The position numbers and the translations under genes are program-made. Source: a virus (lineage: Duplodnaviria > Caudoviricetes). From it: DNA of 55,848 nucleotides. Below, piece after piece: positions 409 to 54,687 of this stretch (within the stretch, counting starts at the first letter, position 1; each line of letters starts with the position of its first letter). The stretch covers positions 1 to 55,848 of IMG/VR virus record IMGVR_UViG_3300049020_000013. One strand, 5' to 3'. The notes under the pieces are model-generated. The model ran no database searches. It was not told where the DNA came from and saw nothing but the letters and a program-made list of their open reading frames with translations.

Positions 409-788
409 TGCGTGGCCTGCAGCATCTCGTTGCCATGCGTCGCTCGGGCTACAGGCCCAACGTCGCATTCATCGACTGCGATGCAGGCCCGAAGGCATTG
501 CCCGCCTGGGCGCAGTGGCAGCACCTCAACCCCGACATGGCGGACATCGAGATTGAGCCGGCGGACGCCCTGCTGCGCATCGACTGGAGGCCATTCGTCG
601 GGATGCTGGTGCACGTCAGCGGCACCAGTGAGGCGAGGGTGCGCGGCGTGAAAGACCGGCTCATCGAGGCTGGCGCAAAGCGAGTGATCTACACCCTGCA
701 CCAGCAGATCGGCCAGGACGAGTGGATCGCATTCAAGACCGTGTGGGTGTACGACACGGAAGGCCAATTCGCACCGAGGGAGGCCTGA
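405..788 (+). CDS. Hypothetical protein
   Basis: 127-aa ORF overlapping both the initiator and the helicase. Confidence 0.7.
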   Translation: MMRGLQHLVAMRRSGYRPNVAFIDCDAGPKALPAWAQWQHLNPDMADIEIEPADALLRIDWRPFVGMLVHVSGTSEARVRGVKDRLIEAGAKRVIYTLHQQIGQDEWIAFKTVWVYDTEGQFAPREA

Positions 789-1723
789 TGGCCAGGGTAC
801 TCACCGACGACATCGACTACGCGTCCTATGAGCGGCAGACCGAATGCCGCGCCAAGGTTCGGCGTGCTGCCGTGTTCACCGACGAGCTGCACGCGAGGTT
901 CCTGCCGCCCGAGAAGCAGCCGCGGCACCCGGAGATGTTCTCCACGAAGCTGCGTGGTGGGCTGCGCTTCCGGCCGGGCGAGGTCACCTGCTGGACTGGC
1001 TACAGCAAGCACCGCAAGAGCATGTTCACCGGCCAGGTGGCCCTGGACCTGTGCGTGCAGCGCGAGCGCGTGCTGATGGCGTCGTTCGAGATGTACCCAG
1101 CCGACACCCTGACGCGCATGGCCAAACAGGCATCCGGCATCCAGCCCCCGACCACCGGCTGGCTGGATCGGTTCGCCCAATGGACGGATAACCGCCTATG
1201 GCTGTTCGACCACGTTGGGCGCATCAACCCGCAGCAGTGCATGGCCGTGGCCCGCTACTTTGCCGAGGAGTGCAAGGGTACCCAGTTCTTCGTGGACTCG
1301 ATGATGATGGTCGTCGGCAGCGAGGAGAGCGCGGACGAACAGAAGCAGTTCGCCACCGACATCATCCGGGTGGCCCAAGAAACGGGCCTCCACATCCATC
1401 TCATCACGCACTGCCGCAAGCCGCAGGGCGGGGACGAGTCGAAGCCGCCGACGAAGTACGACGTGCGCGGATCGGCCGCCATCACCGACCAAGCGCACAA
1501 CATCGTCACCGTGTGGGCGAACAAGGCCAAGCGGGCGAAGCTGGAGCGCAACGCATTCGATGCCGAGGCAGCGCAGGAGCCGGATGCGCTGGTGAGCGTC
1601 GAGGGGCAGCGCAACGGCGCATTCGAGGGACGCGTAAAGCTCTGGTTCCACGACGAGAGCATGCGGTTCCTGGATGAGCAGTTCGGCAATTGCGAGCCCT
1701 ACACCCTATCGGAGCCAGCATGA
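788..1723 (+). CDS. DnaB/T7 gp4-like replicative helicase
   Basis: RPGEVTCWTGYSKHRKS (variant Walker A), SFEM, FFVDS (Walker B), LITHCRK, DVRGSAAITDQAHN, QRNG. Confidence 0.85.
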   Translation: MARVLTDDIDYASYERQTECRAKVRRAAVFTDELHARFLPPEKQPRHPEMFSTKLRGGLRFRPGEVTCWTGYSKHRKSMFTGQVALDLCVQRERVLMASFEMYPADTLTRMAKQASGIQPPTTGWLDRFAQWTDNRLWLFDHVGRINPQQCMAVARYFAEECKGTQFFVDSMMMVVGSEESADEQKQFATDIIRVAQETGLHIHLITHCRKPQGGDESKPPTKYDVRGSAAITDQAHNIVTVWANKAKRAKLERNAFDAEAAQEPDALVSVEGQRNGAFEGRVKLWFHDESMRFLDEQFGNCEPYTLSEPA

Positions 1724-3073: not shown

Positions 3074-3089
3074 TTTGAGAAGAGACGTT

Positions 3090-3950
3090 ATGCAATGCCC
3101 TAAAGGTATGTCCGTGCTTGTCACGGGTGGGACGGGATTCTTCGGACAGGCCTTCGTCAGAGAGGCGCTGGAGCGCGGGGCGCGGCGCGTTTGCGTTCTG
3201 TCGCGCGATGAGCACAAGCATGCAGCGATGCAGGAGGCGTTCGCTGACGACCCACGGCTACGCTGGTTCGTTGGCGATGTGAGGTTCCAGGATCGGCTCG
3301 AGGAGGCGATGGAGGATGTTGACCTCGTTGTACACGCGGCCGCATTGAAGCGCATCCAGACGGGGTTTTACAACCCGGAGGAGATGAAGCGTACGAACGT
3401 AGAGGGAGCCTGGAATGTCATCAAGGCGGCGAAGCGTATGCGGGTGTCCCGCGTGGTCGCGCTGTCATCTGACAAGGCGTTCGAGCCGGTGAGTGAGTAC
3501 GGCCGATCCAAGGCCTCGGCCGAGGGGGCGTTTCTATCGGCCAACAACACCAGGGGTGCTAACGGGCCTATCTATGCCTGTGTTCGCTATGGCAACGTCT
3601 GGAACAGCACTGGGTCCATCGTCCCGAAATGGCGCGCGCTCATTGCCGCCGGGGCGACGGAGGTTCCCGTCACCGACCCAGATTGCACGCGATTCTTCAT
3701 GCGCATTAGTGAGGCGGTGGACCTCGTGATGCACACGGCGGAGACGATGAAGGGCGGGGAATTGAACATCCCAGACTTGCCGGCGTTTCGGGTCGGCGAC
3801 TTGGCTGAAGCGATGGGGGTTGGCATGCGGGTTATGGGGCTGCCGGCCTTTGAGAAAAAGCACGAAGCGATGGGCCCCGGCAACAGCAGTGATCTGGCGC
3901 GCCGCATGTCGGTGGATGAGTTGCGCAAGGAGTTGGAATGCGTCCGATGA
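3090..3950 (+). CDS. pseB: UDP-GlcNAc 4,6-dehydratase (PseB/FlaA1-like SDR); alternative start at 3108
   Basis: VTGGTGFFG, SRDEHK, GDVR, VHAAALK, ALSSDKA, YGRSK (YxxxK), VRYGNV, TRFFM. Confidence 0.9.
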   Translation: MQCPKGMSVLVTGGTGFFGQAFVREALERGARRVCVLSRDEHKHAAMQEAFADDPRLRWFVGDVRFQDRLEEAMEDVDLVVHAAALKRIQTGFYNPEEMKRTNVEGAWNVIKAAKRMRVSRVVALSSDKAFEPVSEYGRSKASAEGAFLSANNTRGANGPIYACVRYGNVWNSTGSIVPKWRALIAAGATEVPVTDPDCTRFFMRISEAVDLVMHTAETMKGGELNIPDLPAFRVGDLAEAMGVGMRVMGLPAFEKKHEAMGPGNSSDLARRMSVDELRKELECVR

Positions 3951-4549
3951 GCCCACACGACGTAACCCGCCAGTTCGAGGCGGCCCTGTGCGAGTACACC
4001 GGTGCCAAGTACGCGGTGACGACGACCAGCTGCACGATGGCGATTCAGATCGCTCTGGCGTGGCATTGCTGGTCGGGCAAGGGGTCGAAAGTGAGCATGC
4101 CGCGCCTGTCCTATGTAGGAGTGCCGGCGGCGATCCTGAATGCAGGCATGTGGCCGGAGTTTCGCCGCGAGGACTGGCAGGGCGAATACCAGTTCGAGCC
4201 GCTGCCGGTGTGGGACTCGGCCCGCCGATTCACCAGCGGCATGTTCCGGCCCGGTGCCATGCAATGCGTGTCGTTCCACTGGTCCAAGATCCTAGGGCTG
4301 AGCCAGGGAGGAGCCATCCTCCACGACAACGACGAGGCCGACGCATGGCTGAGGCGTGCCAGATTCGATGGGCGCACAGAGGGCGTGGACCCAAAGCATG
4401 ACAAGGTGCAGTACCCATCGTGGCACGCCTACCTGTCCCCCGAAGTCGCTGCGCACGGGCTGATGAAGCTGTCGCTGCTGCCCAGGCACAACCCGGACCT
4501 GCCGCGGTCCGACTACCCCGACCTATCAACCATGGAGGCCTTCAAGTGA
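3938..4549 (+). CDS. pseC: DegT/DnrJ/EryC1/StrS PLP aminotransferase (PseC-like, shortened)
   Basis: FEAALCEYTGAKYAVTTTSCT, DSA, SFHWSKILGLSQGGAIL (PLP-lysine motif). Confidence 0.8.
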   Translation: MRPMSPHDVTRQFEAALCEYTGAKYAVTTTSCTMAIQIALAWHCWSGKGSKVSMPRLSYVGVPAAILNAGMWPEFRREDWQGEYQFEPLPVWDSARRFTSGMFRPGAMQCVSFHWSKILGLSQGGAILHDNDEADAWLRRARFDGRTEGVDPKHDKVQYPSWHAYLSPEVAAHGLMKLSLLPRHNPDLPRSDYPDLSTMEAFK

Positions 4550-4857
4550 GCGCCGAACTAACGACAGACACGCTCGCAGTGGGCGACAGGGATGGGATGG
4601 TGTGCCTTCAGTTCCCGAAGCCAGTGCAGTGGTGCACGCTGGACCCGGATACGGCCCGCAACGTTGGCGAGGCCATGGCGCGGCAGGCATACGTCACGCA
4701 GTACGGCGCGGCCCCCAGCCGATCGGCAATCACGGTAGCGATCCAGCAAAAGCTCATCAACCGTGTGTCGCTGCTGCTGCGCAACAGGCCAAACGAGCGG
4801 CCCGAGCTGACGGCGCACCGCCTAGTTGACATCGTTCTATCCGAGGTGGATCGATGA
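4546..4857 (+). CDS. Hypothetical protein within the sugar operon
   Basis: GTGA and ATGA overlaps with its neighbours; 103 aa. Confidence 0.65.
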   Translation: MSAELTTDTLAVGDRDGMVCLQFPKPVQWCTLDPDTARNVGEAMARQAYVTQYGAAPSRSAITVAIQQKLINRVSLLLRNRPNERPELTAHRLVDIVLSEVDR

Positions 4858-5426
4858 GCTGCGTAGCCATCATCCCTGCCCGAGGCGGAAGCGTCCGTAT
4901 CCCGCGCAAGAACATCAAGGCCTTCCGCGGCAAGCCAATCATCGCCTACAGCATCCAGACAGCCATGGATAGTGGGCTGTTTGCCGCCGTCATCGTGAGC
5001 ACGGATGACGATGAGATTGCCCTGACAGCGCTGAAGCTCGGCGCGCTGGTGAGTTGGCGGGATCCAGACGACGGCACAAAAGGAACCCAAGAGGTGGCCG
5101 GCGAGGTGCTGCGCAAGATGCCCGGCATTGACGAGGCGTGCGTGATCTACGCAACCGCACCGCTGTTGTGTATGGACGACCTCAAGGCAGCCAGAGACGC
5201 CGTGGTGCGCGGTGCTCAGTACGCAATGACCGTCGCGAATCCACTGGCGGATGCTGGTGCGGCGTACTGGGGCAAGGCAGATGCCTTCCGGCAGGGGGCG
5301 CCGCTGCTTGGGCCGAACACAGCAATGGTCGCGCTGCCGCCAGAGCGGGTGTGTGACATCAACACCCTGGACGACTGGTCTAGGGCAGAGCAACTCTTTG
5401 ATGCGTTGAGGAGCGCAGCAGCATGA
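4854..5426 (+). CDS. pseF: CMP-nonulosonate synthetase (PseF/NeuA cytidylyltransferase)
   Basis: AIIPARGGSVRIPRKNIKAFRGKPIIAYSI, VSTDDDEIA, YATAPLL, DINTLDDW. Confidence 0.92.
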   Translation: MSCVAIIPARGGSVRIPRKNIKAFRGKPIIAYSIQTAMDSGLFAAVIVSTDDDEIALTALKLGALVSWRDPDDGTKGTQEVAGEVLRKMPGIDEACVIYATAPLLCMDDLKAARDAVVRGAQYAMTVANPLADAGAAYWGKADAFRQGAPLLGPNTAMVALPPERVCDINTLDDWSRAEQLFDALRSAAA

Positions 5427-6001
5427 ACACTGTGGAGTTCTGGTCCGGCGAGTTCGGCGATGAGTACGTTGACAGGAATCGGGTGGATTGGCAAAAGCGC
5501 GAGCACTTCTGGCGCGGAGTCATGCCCAAGGATGCGCGCACTGTGCTGGAGGTCGGTTGCAACATCGGCAGCAACCTCAAGGCCATTCGCTCGGCCTGCG
5601 ACCTGCACCCAGTCGGCGTGGATGTGAACGAGAAGGCGCTACTGGAGGCGGCCGGCGCCGGGTTCGAGGTTCACCGCATGCCAGCGGCCGACATTGCCGA
5701 GCGCCTCGGTGTGGGGTCGTTCGATGTGGTGTTCACGGCCGGCGTGCTCATCCACATCGCCCCGGAGGATCTGGACCGCGTGATGGCGGCCATTGTGGCG
5801 GCGAGCAAACGCTACGTGATTGCCGTGGAGTACGCCCACCCGGAAGAGACGCATGTCACGTACCGTGGGCACGAGGGCAAGCTTTGGAAGCGCCCTTACG
5901 GCCAGCTCTATCAGGCGCTGGGGCTCACGCTCGATGGTTTCGGGTTCGTCGGACACGGCGAGGGCTTCGACAACTGCGCATGGTGGAGGCTCACCAAGTG
6001 A
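5423..6001 (+). CDS. Pseudaminic-acid-biosynthesis-associated SAM methyltransferase
   Basis: FWSGEFGDEYVDRN, VLEVGCNIGSNL, FDVVFTAGVLIHI, YRGHEGKLWKR. Confidence 0.88.
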   Translation: MNTVEFWSGEFGDEYVDRNRVDWQKREHFWRGVMPKDARTVLEVGCNIGSNLKAIRSACDLHPVGVDVNEKALLEAAGAGFEVHRMPAADIAERLGVGSFDVVFTAGVLIHIAPEDLDRVMAAIVAASKRYVIAVEYAHPEETHVTYRGHEGKLWKRPYGQLYQALGLTLDGFGFVGHGEGFDNCAWWRLTK

Positions 6002-39072: not shown

Positions 39073-39281
39073 CCTGTCTAAAACTACCCGGCAGGTGATT
39101 CCGCCACGAGGCCAGTGATTCACGATCAGGTCCAATTCGTATTGGACAGTAGAGCCAGAAAACACCATATATATCAATAACTTAGGCAACGATACAGGCA
39201 TACTGCTGCATTACTGGAGTATGTTGCAACTCCTTGATATCGCTAACCTTTTTGTCCAACGTCTAACGCCTGTCTAAAACT
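39073..39281. other. attP: arm-type repeats flanking an AT-rich segment and a mutS-like core
   Basis: CCTGTCTAAAACT at 39073-39085 and 39269-39281, related TGTCCAA/CGTCTAA sites; minus strand 39223-39200 encodes HTPVMQQY; adjacent to the integrase 3' end. Confidence 0.8.
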
Positions 39282-40232
39282 TGGGCCGGTCACTTCCGGT
39301 GTTTCGCGCAGGCGAATGTAGCGCTCGGTCATGGCTGGGCTGGTATGGCCAAGCAACGCTTGCGCGTCATTTCCCTGGTGCTTGGTGTCGGTGCCCGACT
39401 TCGCGCGCAGGTCGTGTGGGGTGGCGTCTGCAATCCCGGCAGCCTCGCGCGCCTTGTGCCACTGCATCAGGACCGTTCGATAGTCCGGGGCCTTGCCGGT
39501 GCGCCCATGCAGCAGCGTCAGCGCCGTGACGTTCCCATAGAGTGTCTTGGCCCGGTCAACTGCCGCGCGCATCTCAGGTGTCCAGAGCACGCACAGCTTG
39601 GCGCCTGTCTTTTGCTGCTTGAACATGATGCCGCGCTCGGTGATGTCGCCCTTGCGGATGCGCAGCACATCGGTGATGCGCTGCCCGGTCAGGTAGAGCA
39701 GGTCCAGGATCACCTGCAATCGTGGTCCTGCGGCGTCACGGATGGCGAAAAACTCCTCGTCAGTGAGGTAGCGCTCCCGCTTGGCCTCCTCGTGCCGCTT
39801 GATGCCGATGCACGGGTTCGTGTCCACAAGCTGCCACTCGACGGCATAACCGAAGACCAGCCGCAGGAACGAGAGTTTCCGGTTGGTCATGTTCGGCGTG
39901 TCGGCGCCGGCCAGCTTGAGGGCAGCGACGTGCTTGGCCTTCACCTGCTCCGGTGCGAACTCGGCGAACGCCCGTTTGAGCGATTCCGCGGCAATGCGAT
40001 ACTGAGCGCGCGTGGCCGGCGCGACCTTCGGCGCGTGGTGCGAGTAGACCTTTTCGATCAACTCGGCCATGCCGCCTTTTGGGACGGCGATCCGGTTGGC
40101 ATAGTCCGCCAAAGCCTGGGCCATATCGGTTCCCAGGTCGTTCCACTTGCCGCCCTTGACGTACCAAAAGCGGCCGTGCTTGAAGTAGACGCACGGCGGT
40201 AGATGGCGATCCTTTTTTCTCGGGCGCGTCAT
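39243..40232 (-). CDS. int: Tyrosine integrase
   Basis: TGQRITD (R), QQKTG (K), HDLR, LLGH, Y. Confidence 0.95.
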   Translation of the reverse strand: MTRPRKKDRHLPPCVYFKHGRFWYVKGGKWNDLGTDMAQALADYANRIAVPKGGMAELIEKVYSHHAPKVAPATRAQYRIAAESLKRAFAEFAPEQVKAKHVAALKLAGADTPNMTNRKLSFLRLVFGYAVEWQLVDTNPCIGIKRHEEAKRERYLTDEEFFAIRDAAGPRLQVILDLLYLTGQRITDVLRIRKGDITERGIMFKQQKTGAKLCVLWTPEMRAAVDRAKTLYGNVTALTLLHGRTGKAPDYRTVLMQWHKAREAAGIADATPHDLRAKSGTDTKHQGNDAQALLGHTSPAMTERYIRLRETPEVTGPSFRQALDVGQKG

Positions 40233-50795: not shown

Positions 50796-50992
50796 GCCGC
50801 CTCCTTGGCGATCGGCTGCACGTTGTCCAGTGCGTGCTCCATGTCGGCGAGCGCCTCAAACACAGGCTCAAGGTCGAACTCGCGGTTGAAGGTGCCGATG
50901 CGGCCGTGCGCTGCGTTCAGCAACGCATTCAGATCGTCCAGCGTGCGCAGAGGAGCGCTGCGGATGGCTGACAGTGCTGCTTCGAGAGTCAT
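50792..50992 (-). CDS. Hypothetical protein
   Basis: Coupled small ORF. Confidence 0.55.
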   Translation of the reverse strand: MTLEAALSAIRSAPLRTLDDLNALLNAAHGRIGTFNREFDLEPVFEALADMEHALDNVQPIAKEAA

Positions 50993-51207
50993 GCCGGCAC
51001 CCGGTCGTAAAGAGAGGCCGCCTCAGTCGCCAGGAAGTCCTGGTGATAGCGCACGCCGTCATCGACATTGCGCGGCCGGGTGTAGTCGCAGCCTGGATAT
51101 GTCGCGCGGATGAGCTGGACAGCCACATCGGCGTTCTCAGCCGGCACTTCGATGCGCTTCGTGAGACTAGATGCGGGGGTGATCCACGCCTTGTAGATGG
51201 CGCTCAT
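50989..51207 (-). CDS. Hypothetical protein
   Basis: Coupled small ORF near PL. Confidence 0.55.
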   Translation of the reverse strand: MSAIYKAWITPASSLTKRIEVPAENADVAVQLIRATYPGCDYTRPRNVDDGVRYHQDFLATEAASLYDRVPA

Positions 51208-51376
51208 ACCAGCGCCTCCAACACGTCATCCATCGCTTCGCACTGCTCTGCCGTCACCTCGTCATCAAGGCGTACAGGCTCAAGAGGCTCAAGCGGGGCA
51301 GGTGCTAGGTAGTGCGCTAGAAGCTCGTCCATTCCCATCTCCTGTGCCCCAGCTGCGGGGCTTGTCGATGGGATGG

Positions 51377-51418
51377 AGTATAGGCATTGCCGATTGATAA
51401 CGCAATGGCATTGCCTAT
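51377..51418 (-). promoter_or_regulatory. PL promoter with two operators
   Basis: Minus strand TTGCGT-17-TATACT (51405-51377); operators ATAGGCATTGCCGAT (51380-51394) and AATGGCATTGCCTAT (51404-51418). Confidence 0.8.
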
Positions 51419-51527
51419 CTATCGATGCGTAGAGGAAACCCTAGATCTAGCACCTGTGCGATATGCCGCACACGGCGCTATCCCGGCTCACGTGTGAGGG
51501 TGCCCTGTGCATTTGTGCACTGCACGA

Positions 51528-51555
51528 TTGCCGTTGTGGTCGGAATCCGTAGAAT
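51528..51555 (+). promoter_or_regulatory. Sigma70-like promoter upstream of the structured RNA
   Basis: TTGCCG-16-TAGAAT. Confidence 0.5.
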
Positions 51556-51573
51556 CCCCAATGCCACAGGCTA

Positions 51574-51942
51574 GCCCCTAAGGCACATTGCACGTCAAGA
51601 GCCCTCAAGCTCTGTCGTTCATGCCCGTCACCGGGCGCCGTGGGCTAGCACGGGAGCGACAGGCCTTGAGGGCTTTCCCGTTCCTGGTGGCCGCACTCCT
51701 GGCGTCACCAAGCGGGCTAGCTGTCCCGGCGAGGAAGGAAAGCAGTACGCGGTAGCTCTCCCGAGCAAGAGGCAACTACCTCTACAACCCGCGCGGCTGG
51801 CCGTAACCACACGCCGAGGGGAGACGGACGATCCGTCCCATGTGGTTTCCCGCAAGGGGGTGACACACGTCATCGAAGGCACCCACCACAACCCCATTAC
51901 GGGGAAGTGGGGGCCTTTCCGGTGACTTATGGCTTTAGGGGC
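51574..51942 (+). ncRNA. Putative ~370-nt structured non-coding RNA
   Basis: Ends pair (GCCCCTAAGGC / GCTTTAGGGGC); nested stems AGCCCTCAAG/CTTGAGGGCT and CTGTCGTTC/GAGCGACAG; several further hairpins; no credible ORF. Confidence 0.6.
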
Positions 51943-52245
51943 CTACTGCACCTGCATTGAGGACGGGCACGAGCCCGGGAACGCTCGCCAGAAGGTCTGC
52001 CCAGCGTAGTTGTACTCACAGCGCCAGACCGACATGCCGGTGACCGACTGGCCCATCTCTTGACGGCCGGTCCAATAGGCACTGGCGCCCTGCTGAATCT
52101 GCATTGCGGGCGGTGGTGGTGCTCCGCCGCTGACGGGGTATGGCATCGGCAGCGGTTGAAACGGCCGCCAACCCGGTGGAGGCTGCCAGCCGCTACAGCC
52201 TGCCAGCGCCAAACCCATAACGGCGGCCGCAATGATTCGCTTCAT
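51943..52245 (-). CDS. Lipoprotein in the immunity region
   Basis: MKRIIAAAVMGLALAGC lipobox; Pro-rich linker and a Cys pair. Confidence 0.75.
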   Translation of the reverse strand: MKRIIAAAVMGLALAGCSGWQPPPGWRPFQPLPMPYPVSGGAPPPPAMQIQQGASAYWTGRQEMGQSVTGMSVWRCEYNYAGQTFWRAFPGSCPSSMQVQ

Positions 52246-52410
52246 GTTGTCATCTCCCTGGTTGTGCGGTACACGAAAACTAGAGTCGCCCACCCATCCG
52301 CTTGAGGGGGTGGTGTGTGAAAAATACACGCAATGCCCGCGCGACTCGGGCGTTAAATGGACACAACACCAACAACAACCGGGCGAAACCTATATGCGAA
52401 GGGGACGGAA

Positions 52411-52863
52411 ATGCACAGTGGACCGGCTATATCCGGAGCGGTTGGTGCCGCGCGCCATGCTGGCGCAGTGATAGTTACCCCCACTGGGGCGCTGACCACA
52501 AAGGTATACGAATCGGCCCTGGAGCTGGTGAGCCTGGAGGCGGATCAGCGGCCGTTTAGCACGCTAGTCATCGATCTCACACGCACGGACCCGGCATGCG
52601 ACTGGGATGGCGGCACGCAGGCTTCGGGGAAGTTCTGCCGAGCGCATCACGTCCGCTGCGCCCTGGTTGTCCCGACGTGGATGCTGCTTCAGGCGCGAAG
52701 CGAATGCTTCCGACAAACGGCGGCATCCGGGCTCATTTGGGTCACGTTCCTTCGCCTTCCTGATGCCCTCGAATGGGCCGCGAGCTGGCGCGTTTCTCCT
52801 GGAGCGAATGCACTACCTCTGCAGTCCCGGTACGAACATCCATCACCGCAGTTTCTGCATTAG
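52411..52863 (+). CDS. SpoIIAA/STAS-like protein
   Basis: LVIDLT...RCALVV...F...DALEWA pattern. Confidence 0.45.
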   Translation: MHSGPAISGAVGAARHAGAVIVTPTGALTTKVYESALELVSLEADQRPFSTLVIDLTRTDPACDWDGGTQASGKFCRAHHVRCALVVPTWMLLQARSECFRQTAASGLIWVTFLRLPDALEWAASWRVSPGANALPLQSRYEHPSPQFLH

Positions 52864-53191
52864 CCACCGCCAACAGGCGTAAGTGGGGTGGCGTGGCCGC
52901 GATCATCTGCATCAGGTGGGCGATGCTGACAGCGAAGTCCTCGTTCGTGCCGGATGCTGGCGGGGCGGGGGTATCCCATGCGCTCGGGAGTCCCCAGTGC
53001 TCGGGGCCGGCGACATCCTTGAAATACGCCACTAGCGCGGGGATGTGCTGCTTTCCGATGCGCCCGAACTTGATCCACTCTGATACGGACGGCTGCGTGA
53101 TGCCGAAGGCCTTCGCGACGTCTTTTTGAGTCACGCCTTTCTTCGCCATTGCCCCTTTGAGGGCGGCGCCTAGTTCCGGCCCGGTATGCAT
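52742..53191 (-). CDS. cI: CI-like repressor (XRE HTH, no S24 peptidase domain)
   Basis: GVTQKDVAKAFGITQPSVSEW; divergent from cro across the operators. Confidence 0.8.
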   Translation of the reverse strand: MHTGPELGAALKGAMAKKGVTQKDVAKAFGITQPSVSEWIKFGRIGKQHIPALVAYFKDVAGPEHWGLPSAWDTPAPPASGTNEDFAVSIAHLMQMIAATPPHLRLLAVANAETAVMDVRTGTAEVVHSLQEKRASSRPIRGHQEGEGT

Positions 53192-53203
53192 ACCTAGATT
53201 GCA

Positions 53204-53261
53204 ACAGGCACTGCCTGTAATAGGCAATGCGCTTGCGGTGCGCATCGGCAATGCCTATACT
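53204..53261 (+). promoter_or_regulatory. OR operators and PR promoter
   Basis: ACAGGCACTGCCTGT (53204), ATAGGCAATGCGCTT (53220), ATCGGCAATGCCTAT (53244); TTGCGG-17-TATACT (53233-53261). Confidence 0.8.
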
Positions 53262-53268
53262 TCGGCAC

Positions 53269-53520
53269 ATGAATGCAATCGAGCGAGCCATCAAATGCTT
53301 CGGCAGCCAGGCGGCTATGGCATCTGCCCTCGGAGTGACGCAACCAACCATCAGCGAGTGGCTTAGAGGCGAGCGCAAGGTGCCCACGAAGCGGTGCCCG
53401 GTCATCGAGCGTGAGACCCGAGCCCGTGGCGTTGTCATCCTCTGCGAGGAGCTGCGCCCGGATGTCGCGTGGAGTGTGTTGCGCGCCCCTGCCGAGCCAG
53501 AAACCAAGGCAGCCGCCTAG
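53269..53520 (+). CDS. cro: Cro/YdaS-like regulator
   Basis: GSQAAMASALGVTQPTISEW...CPVIERET...EELRPDV.W. Confidence 0.85.
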   Translation: MNAIERAIKCFGSQAAMASALGVTQPTISEWLRGERKVPTKRCPVIERETRARGVVILCEELRPDVAWSVLRAPAEPETKAAA

Positions 53521-54309
53521 CAGCCCATGCGTAGCTTCATCCTGTTCGTACTCGGGTGGCAGGTGACGAGATTCCTCTGCTGTCTCTATGAGCTGAGCCG
53601 CGGAGCAAAGGTTGAGCGTGATGGCTTCGACCTCGCATTCGCGTGCTTCATGGCTGCCCTCACATGCGCCTGGGCGCTGCTCGTTCTGAGGTAGCCCATG
53701 CGCACCGCTATGACTGCCGCAAAGACCGTGCCGTGCGCGATCGTCTTCTCCGCGCTGCTCCTCGTGTGGGCGTTGGCCTACATGCTGGAAGGCGGCCTGG
53801 ATCGCGCGTTGGTGTGGCTGGTCAACCGCTGGCCCGAGTGCTGACGCATGGGCCCTCATCGCTTGCACTCCAGCTGCATGAGCAGGTCCGCGTGCAGCGC
53901 ATCGATCGCGCGCCGGAACACCTCCCGCGCAAACGAGTTTCCCGCCACCACCACTCCTGTGCCTACCTCCCCGGTGGCGGGCTTCTTCGCTCCGGCGCCA
54001 GTACGGGCCGGAGCGTTCTTTCGCGGTGCTGGTTTGTTGGTGCTCATTCGCGTCCTCAATTCATCTCAGTGTTGCAGTGCGTCATTGCGGCATAGGGAGC
54101 AATTCATCCGGGGTGGAGTAGTCAATTCCTCCTCCGTCATCAATCGACGCCTGTGTGCAGCGTCCAGCCCTAAGCCCCCGGCCGAGGGGGGCATCCCGAC
54201 AGTCGGGGGTAGATGGGTTCGGGCGCTGCACAGAGGTGTTTGTTTTTTGAGCGTCTCGCATAGCCCTCAGTTTTCGCCCGCGCCAACGGCGGACGCAACG
54301 GAGGATTCA

Positions 54310-54687
54310 ATGAACTCTTCCTATGGATGCCCCCGTATGGAGACCACGTCACTGCCGCTGATCGGCGTGATTGAGCCGCCGCGAGCCGTGCCCACGGCCG
54401 CGGTCCTTGCCTGTAAGACCTATCGCGAAGCTGTGCGCGCGTGCTGGATGCGCCGCCGCGTGCACTACATGACGCAGCGTCAGTTGGCGATCTACGCCGG
54501 CCTGCGCCCGCAGCTCATCAGCGACTACCTGAACCCAGACGACACGCCGCAGCGGCGCGACTTGCCCGCGGAATGCATTGCCGCGTTCGAGACCGTGTGC
54601 GGCAACTCACTCGTAAGCCAGTGGGTCGCCGCGCAATCCAAGCTGACCGTGCTCGAAGAGATGCAAGCAACGAGGGCGGCGGCATGA
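54310..54687 (+). CDS. CII-like / XRE DNA-binding protein
   Basis: MTQRQLAIYAGLRPQLISDYLN...FETVCGN...QW; lies between cro and the initiator. Confidence 0.65.
   Translation: MNSSYGCPRMETTSLPLIGVIEPPRAVPTAAVLACKTYREAVRACWMRRRVHYMTQRQLAIYAGLRPQLISDYLNPDDTPQRRDLPAECIAAFETVCGNSLVSQWVAAQSKLTVLEEMQATRAAA

Follow-up and report, generated by a model that had tools for sequence, protein, structure and literature searches.

Comparative analysis places a conserved, folded, non-coding element at approximately positions 51690 to 51926, on the + strand of the window, by which we mean the whole 55,848-bp stretch of phage DNA that was analyzed. As judged from alignment of its relatives, the element is kept by compensatory changes, and the family it represents is previously undescribed and absent from Rfam 15. 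We give roughly an even chance to a more specific reading, in which 51562-51945 (+) would be a stand-alone gene for a structured noncoding RNA (ncRNA) of ~385 nt, a member of an undescribed temperate phage/prophage family that likely acts in trans. Structure exceeding that expected by chance is limited to 51690-51926. A first-pass annotation made from the window had proposed a large closed, multi-branched RNA; a structured + strand ncRNA stands, but the closing stem and long arm that gave it its closed form are specific to this phage and lie outside the conserved RNA.

The phage record that makes up the window is complete, has direct terminal repeats, and contains 63.5% G+C; DNA near-identical to it occurs in soil metagenome runs. 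None of the 20 sequencing runs with window DNA is recorded as RNA, and run X19, which is labeled RNA-Seq and marked as probably DNA, is without coverage over 50904-52317. The positions of the RNA, its parts, and the neighboring genes are collected in Table 1. As had been noted, the region extends up to the stop codon of a convergent gene for a lipoprotein, whose lipobox signal scores 18.1 bits (E 0.0036), below the Pfam cut-off of 20; IMG/VR searches with the lipoprotein and the cI-like repressor as queries gave no relatives. Copies of an operator-like motif, GGCA(A/T)TGCC, lie at 51383-51391 and 51407-51415 and again in the cI-cro gap, and the motif is thereby common to the leftward promoter region and that gap (51377-51415; 53220-53261). 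The same two places hold an 18-nt inverted identity (51377-51394 versus 53244-53261), which contains a TATACT −10-like hexamer on each side. The promoter of the RNA is overlapped by no full copy of the motif, only by a 7-nt half, and the RNA may be expressed in lysogens, as the first-pass annotation suggested.

Table 1. Features of the window that bear on the RNA (columns: feature, position, strand, basis or remark)
Candidate RNA region	51528-51945	+	
Sigma-70-like promoter, TTGCCG-16-TAGAAT	51528-51555	+	promoter scan, 9/12 positions matched
Window-specific leader	51563-51685	+	single-sequence fold
Conserved body, 5′ part	51686-51735	+	aligns with L089
Small hairpin CGGG/CCCG	51713-16 with 51725-28	+	
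Three-way junction P1/P1a/P1b	51743-51799	+	family alignment
P1	51748-52 with 51789-93	+	family alignment
P1a	51755-58 with 51763-66	+	all four pairs covary
P1b, loop CAACTA	51768-72 with 51779-83	+	family alignment
Conserved joining strand GCGGCTGGCCG	51793-51804	+	nearly invariant in member alignment
P2 (element 51805-51847)	51805-11 with 51841-47	+	covariation
P2b hairpin, within P2	51820-27 with 51833-39	+	covariation
P3 hairpin CCC-GCAA-GGG	51849-51858	+	alignment
G-run, X1 (GGGGGTGAC), and P4	51856-51874	+	alignment
P4 small hairpin	51859-64 with 51869-74	+	alignment
P5, pyrimidine-rich strand versus G-rich strand, then TTT	51875-51918	+	pairing plausible
X2 CGGTGAC, direct repeat of X1	51920-51926	+	repeat comparison
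Closing stem 3′ strand, window-specific	51932-51942	+	fold; adjoins lipoprotein stop codon
Leftward early operon, first gene start	51338	−	direction leftward
Convergent lipoprotein gene (context, outside RNA)	51946-52245, stop codon 51943-51945	−	lipobox signal
cI-like repressor gene	52745-53251	−	
Cro/YdaS-like gene	53227-53517	+	
cII-like gene	53848-54684		
Integrase gene	39246-40232		
Helicase gene, DnaB-like	722-1720		

Several further observations concern the phage itself. In one metagenome contig, from run X5, position 51375 seems to be joined to 52263, with the sequence between marked as not known; a close relative may therefore lack or replace the block with the RNA and the lipoprotein gene. 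An open reading frame (ORF) of 168 aa (52357-52860, + strand), opposite cI and overlapping its 3′ end, matches nothing in Pfam or PHROG. Two features lie between the early and packaging genes: a 73-aa protein (2172-2390) that resembles the C-terminal part of a sigma factor and, after it, a gene cluster (3075-6001) of sugar-epimerase-like, aminotransferase-like, and methyltransferase-like members.

The promoter-like sequence reported ahead of the RNA was confirmed and is the sole such site in 51200-52400 (shuffle mean, 0.5); transcription is predicted to start near 51562. ORFs that overlap the region are short and arginine/proline-rich. The earlier view that none is credible is borne out by the relatives: no frame stays open throughout 23 distinct homologs, stops occur in all six frames in 7 of the 23, and cores vary in length by amounts not divisible by 3. 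For 51560-51945 (+), the minimum-free-energy fold has −194 kcal/mol and a z score of −5.98, with none of 100 shuffles as good, and the reverse strand folds with a z score of −3.34. Four elements that had been proposed from the single sequence are present in this fold, namely, the closing stem (51574-51584 paired to 51932-51942), the long arm with its two hairpin caps, the GACGGA-CGA-TCCGTC stem-loop, and the stem-loop with the GCAA tetraloop. A GGTAG/CTACC arm proposed along with them was not recovered; both the fold and the family alignment use two small hairpins, P1a and P1b, instead. In a terminator scan of the window, none was called at the leader or at P5, 3′ of which the window has TTT, L089 has TTTT, and other members have CTCT or GTGT.

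Relatives were sought by sequence, by structure, and by gene neighborhood. BLAST against 50,697 public phage records gave no match, and against 26 IMG/VR records related by their portal it gave only chance matches of 17 to 22 nt, in 7 of the 26; a covariance model applied to the 26 portal-related records found the RNA in none. The first lead was a 12.8-kb metagenome contig that matches only 51771-51887, with ~14 substitutions. Exact patterns from this stretch led to three IMG/VR contigs (L089, L090, and L091) and to a contig of a betaproteobacterial metagenome-assembled genome (L092), and a more divergent copy, located in a prophage of genome G523, was confirmed with a score of 42.9 bits by a covariance model of the 149-nt core, 51736-51884 (model R1). 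Because a Toprim_3 primase gene precedes the RNA in all five of these loci, loci with relatives of the primase were collected (75 IMG/VR loci). The RNA was present in 5 of the 72 new loci among them, each time on the same strand and just downstream of the primase gene. A second covariance model (R2) comprises 9 sequences. A pattern from the conserved 3′ region then matched 28 IMG/VR loci, 22 of which match R2 at E up to 0.01; 20 of those are on previously unseen contigs.

In total, the family consists of 31 loci: the window, 28 IMG/VR contigs, and two betaproteobacterial genomes. The G+C content of the core ranges from 49% to 68% across members, and the core of the window is most like that of L089 (84% identity). 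Full-length matches of the window reach 166 bits with R1 and 142 bits with R2, partly by construction since the window is a seed of both; the independent support for the family model comes from the 22 other distinct sequences. Among 151 genomes of one order, R1 found the seed genome only, besides a 23-bit match that was rejected; a run of R2 on 151 genomes found G523 only. BLAST on 401 genomes of one family recovered the seed, the true member G523, and a partial copy in G267; two weak matches were set aside, namely, L104, with only 4.6 bits under the model, and L103, which the model did not match. Likewise, two loci from a pattern scan of JGI metagenomes have no flanking similarity to the RNA and were treated as chance. 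The partial copy in G267 (L101/L106; L106:7370-7460) consists of the P1 three-way junction alone, scores 18 to 25 bits near a contig edge, and could be a fragment or a smaller relative. A literature search found no description of the RNA.

To assess the structure, pair statistics were taken over 23 distinct core sequences (26 aligned) and 41 pairs, or 891 cells. Standard pairs fill 91.0% of the cells versus 66.9% in column shuffles, none of 500 of which was as high, although the alignments were fitted to the model, which favors its structure, and related sequences inflate the shuffle test. Sliding the partners by 1 to 3 columns leaves 37 to 48% paired, and an earlier set of 9 sequences had given 93.8% paired versus 68.3% in shuffles. 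Both sides change in 30 of the 41 pairs, so that the search for homologs and covariation suggested by the first-pass annotation came out in favor of a conserved structure. Its remark that G-U pairs favor the + strand also holds: G-U or U-G occupies 82 of the 891 cells and A-C or C-A occupies 14, an excess that identifies the modeled strand (+ in the window) as the one that folds, and the z scores of the two strands agree. Hairpin loops exchange GNRA and UUCG between members, a pattern that suits RNA.

Support differs among the parts of the structure. All seven P2 pairs and six of the seven P2b pairs change on both sides, with 97% and 96% of cells paired, respectively; P2 encloses a conserved G-rich internal loop, CGCCGAGGGG, in addition to P2b. 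Among the substitutions of the 12.8-kb metagenome contig, G51823>A is coupled with C51837>T, at the two ends of one hairpin. Of the P1 pairs, three are altered on both sides in 5 to 11 of the 23 sequences and a fourth in 2; pairing is weak in the outer four positions of the junction (51743-46 with 51796-99), where up to 9 of 23 sequences lack a pair. Most other members have a GNRA or UUCG loop on P3. The pairing of P5 is plausible but finds no support in covariation: 87% of its cells are paired, no better than in shuffles (86.6%), because the G-rich strand hardly varies. The most conserved sequence is G5-TA-G6, found in 19 of 22 members, which is more constant than pairing by itself would call for. 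Within each member X1 and X2 are close to identical, and they change together between members; over 15 distinct pairs they share 84 identical positions, against a shuffle mean of 73.1, a value reached in 1 of 10,000 shuffles. In the window, L089, L092, L160, and L175, X1 and X2 could pair alternately with the intervening segment; L207, L210, and L165 do not fit such a scheme. Two further candidates were discarded: an RNAalifold pairing of X1 with the 3′ strand of H0, an extra hairpin of some members, failed by eye in L165 and L175, and a conserved ATG after X2, considered as a gene start, was seen only in the window, L089, L092, and L146.

Homology is limited to ~51690-51930, and the 5′ 120 nt of the window are replaced by other sequence elsewhere. 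The leader, which has no sequence homolog and no covariation support, consists of the 5′ strand of the closing stem, the long arm (~51598-51677) with its two hairpin caps, and then CTTTCCCGTT; neither the closing stem nor the long 5′ arm was found in any homolog. A T-run lies 57 to 65 nt 5′ of the core in L160, L207, L197, L210, and L201, preceded in the last four by a long hairpin (by eye), and the window has CTTTCCCGTT at 52 to 61 nt. The leader hairpin and T-run may act as a terminator or attenuator. Closer to the core, GCACTC of the window (43 nt 5′ of the core) has counterparts of the form G(T/C)ACTC at −43 in L207, L197, and L210, at −41 in L201, and at −47 in L199.

In all 30 loci other than the window, the RNA is part of an early operon, with primase, RusA, or methylase genes as neighbors, and is co-directional with the flanking early genes, so the link to an immunity region drawn from the window is incidental. 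Contexts were counted in the 20 loci that the 3′ pattern brought in; these form ~12 sequence clusters, and their context counts are independent of any protein query. A Toprim_3 primase gene lies upstream in 4 of the 20, and a Toprim-DnaB primase-helicase gene starts 459 to 473 nt downstream in 6. RusA lies 361 to 1,501 nt upstream in 9, with a PAPS-reductase-like gene between in four; one of the nine, L194, also has the primase-helicase downstream. In a single locus, an N6/N4 DNA methylase is located 61 nt 3′ of the RNA, and an apparent C5 methylase follows it in L201 (by eye). Primase and junction-resolvase genes flank the RNA in either order. The downstream genes are unrelated to one another (nuclease-like ORFs, DNA methylase, HNH endonuclease, primase-helicase, and others unassigned), and the next gene begins 30 to 120 nt after X2 in several members. 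The window contains no relative of the members' primases, RusA, or methylase (best primase tblastn match, E 0.58). The range of neighborhoods indicates that the RNA moves between genomic contexts.

Members differ in what precedes the core. Hairpin H0 is present before it in eight primase-linked members (L089, L092, L102, L146, L153, L165, L198, and L203). Neither these nor L091 and L175 have an upstream promoter-like site matching at least 10 of 12 positions, and among the H0 members only L165 has one at 9/12; they must therefore be co-transcribed with their operons, an arrangement that fits a cis role as well. Across 22 members, sites matching at least 10 of 12 positions occur upstream on the RNA strand in 6 and on the opposite strand in none (shuffle mean, 0.77). 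In a re-scan with our own script, the first hexamer was located 208 to 248 nt 5′ of the core in the window, L206, L207, and L210 and 367 to 405 nt 5′ in L187 and L184, which carry an insertion. A separate promoter scan independently confirmed the site of L207, where the order is terminator, promoter, RNA, and second terminator. In the promoter-bearing members, a long hairpin and U-run end ~57 to 65 nt before the core. The window combines an L089-like core with this second, autonomous layout.

Some loci show features of their own. L207 (1598-1800), L197 (~4985-5190), L210, L201, and L206 share, upstream of the RNA, a promoter-like site and after it a conserved 150- to 190-nt leader ending in a long hairpin and a U-run; the hairpin stem shows a compensatory change between L207 (GGGG/CCCC) and L197 (GGTG/CACC); this leader may be a separate small RNA or an attenuator. 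In L092 (reverse strand), the primase reading frame seems to shift ~1500 to 1860 upstream of the RNA; one frame enters the RNA with an unlikely composition and another ends cleanly just before it, which could reflect a frameshift or an assembly error. The prophage of G523 encodes an SF2 helicase of 1,010 aa (L105:9692-12721, − strand) with Hint and LAGLIDADG matches, and this helicase probably contains an intein.

How the RNA works can be approached from these contexts. Under the reading that we put at about evens, transcription of the window copy would start at the sigma-70-like promoter and pass the window-specific hairpin leader, which is placed as the hairpin and U-run of other members are and may gate expression, and the transcript would end near the convergent lipoprotein gene. 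The RNA would then act in trans, most likely as a folded protein- or RNA-binding scaffold in the early replication/recombination program, and in this phage it would be an accessory cassette that has moved next to the immunity region. A trans-acting RNA is preferred on account of the varied neighbors, the insulation of several members as units with a promoter of their own, and the lack of any co-directional gene after the RNA in the window. What counts against such a gene is that its start, end, and expression are all predicted from sequence. The constant co-orientation with early genes would also fit a cis-acting transcription element of early operons, that is, a terminator cluster, attenuator, or processive antiterminator that acts on its own polymerase and controls read-through from replication genes into the next block; lambda tR2 and HK022 put are comparable elements. 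The location between primase and junction-resolvase genes in either order, the hairpin and U-run just before the body in several members, the terminators that bracket the L207 unit, and the lack of an own promoter in primase-linked members all agree with control of this kind. We nevertheless consider it unlikely: in the window, transcription through the RNA would run against the convergent gene and on across cI in antisense, with read-through there of no use or even damaging; a conserved multi-helix fold of ~250 nt far exceeds what known terminators or put sites need; and the U-run after P5 is absent in several members (CTCT or GTGT).

Co-orientation would also suit a replication element, such as an origin or primer RNA that loads helicase and primase, e.g., through an RNA-DNA hybrid formed by the invariant G-rich 3′ segment. 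A primase gene lies within ~500 nt in 10 of the 20 loci found without a primase query (4 upstream and 6 downstream), the excess conservation of G5-TA-G6 over its pairing needs points the same way, and an A+T-rich stretch follows X2 in several members (by eye). The window argues otherwise, as it has no such primase and its RNA is ~5 kb from the helicase gene, measured across the genome end; moreover, the 20 loci amount to ~12 sequence clusters, so that the counts are not independent, and no iterons were seen by inspection. We also rate a replication element as unlikely. The portal-related records decide nothing on this point because those without the RNA also lack the window helicase (shared by none of the 15 largest of the 26). 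A more particular version, in which the transcript is part of a portable transcription-primed origin, is one we regard as quite improbable: G5-TA-G6 and the T's after it would form a persistent RNA-DNA hybrid, X1 and X2 would set the hybrid ends, and helicase and primase would start replication there. ColE1 RNA II and the mitochondrial CSB II primer site are the counterparts of such an origin. Adjacency to primase genes could also mean that the conserved element is a structure of single-stranded DNA, serving as a primase recognition or strand-initiation site, and covariation alone cannot separate RNA from single-stranded DNA, as stated in passages of PMC5737381. We find this very unlikely in view of the members with their own promoter-like sites and terminators, the exchange of GNRA and UUCG loops, and the presence of the RNA in a phage without the primase. 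The same very low probability attaches to a riboswitch-like leader that controls the downstream gene; the short distance from X2 to the next gene start in several members (30 to 120 nt) and the possible alternative pairing of X1, X2, and the segment between in some members speak for it, but the downstream genes are unrelated between members and that of the window is convergent.

An RNA of ~250 nt that is kept by compensatory changes over phages of 49 to 68% G+C implies a function under selection, and nothing like it has been catalogued. Few known bacterial RNAs have an anatomy like this one, with a direct repeat whose copies co-vary on either side of a nearly invariant G-rich stretch. The window copy, a self-contained cassette with its own putative promoter, offers a good test case for function; if the RNA does prime replication or bind a host factor, it would be a new kind of RNA tool in phage biology.

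Comparison with known RNAs agrees with the earlier remark that no family could be assigned. Rfam 15 gave no match at the gathering score in the whole window, and at E up to 10 only three chance-level matches in 51300-52100 (at most 16.3 bits versus cut-offs of 35 to 65); on the RNA of other members there was none in 9 loci (E up to 1) or in 13 further loci (gathering score). The c4 antisense RNA of P1 and N15, ~77 nt long, acts by base pairing and has its own promoter near a temperate-phage repressor gene. The window RNA shares with it the putative promoter and the proximity to a repressor gene, but the c4 Rfam model has no match in the window and all 30 other loci are outside an immunity region. 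In the put-type antiterminators of HK022, a pair of stem-loops encoded shortly 3′ of an early promoter acts on RNA polymerase; the architecture of the new RNA is much larger. Some traits recall tRNA, namely, the 7 bp of P2 and, in several members, a P2b loop of TTCAAAT closed by G-C, like a T arm; however, this loop is missing from the window and many other members, and ARAGORN found no tRNA or tmRNA genes in the window and 21 member loci. The large ornate RNAs GOLLD and ROOL are described as often located in prophages (10.1101/2024.12.08.627333; PMC5737381). They resemble the new RNA in being large, multi-helix, phage-associated, and without an adjacent partner gene. The new RNA differs in that it matches neither in Rfam, is smaller, has no association with tRNA genes, and lies in phage early regions, with two members in prophages of Betaproteobacteria.

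The closest parallel in position is the orphan motif Betaproteobacteria-1 (RF02932). It scores 57 to 97 bits (cut-off, 49.4) in L111, L113, L114, and L115, where it occupies the same slot as the new RNA, 10 to 13 nt after the stop codon of a primase that is 63 to 75% identical to the L089 primase, which precedes the new RNA. The matches lie at L111:2341-2460, L113:2348-2465, L114:2348-2466, and L115:2335-2462, in each case directly after the stop of a Toprim_3 primase, and ~100 nt of further conserved noncoding sequence follows there (by eye). Primase-adjacent placement gives Betaproteobacteria-1 a defined genomic context; a literature search found no functional study of the motif, and the available passages of PMC5737381 do not discuss it. 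The two RNAs are alike in their direction and in the kind of phage that carries them, but Betaproteobacteria-1 is 120 nt long versus ~250 nt, and there is no detectable homology: RF02932 has no match in the window region (E up to 10) or in 9 member loci (E up to 1). The position just 3′ of a phage primase is shared by 14 other family members and not by the window copy. Since two RNAs without detectable homology, the new one and an orphan Rfam motif, have this slot in common, phage replication/recombination modules may carry interchangeable structured RNAs as standard parts.
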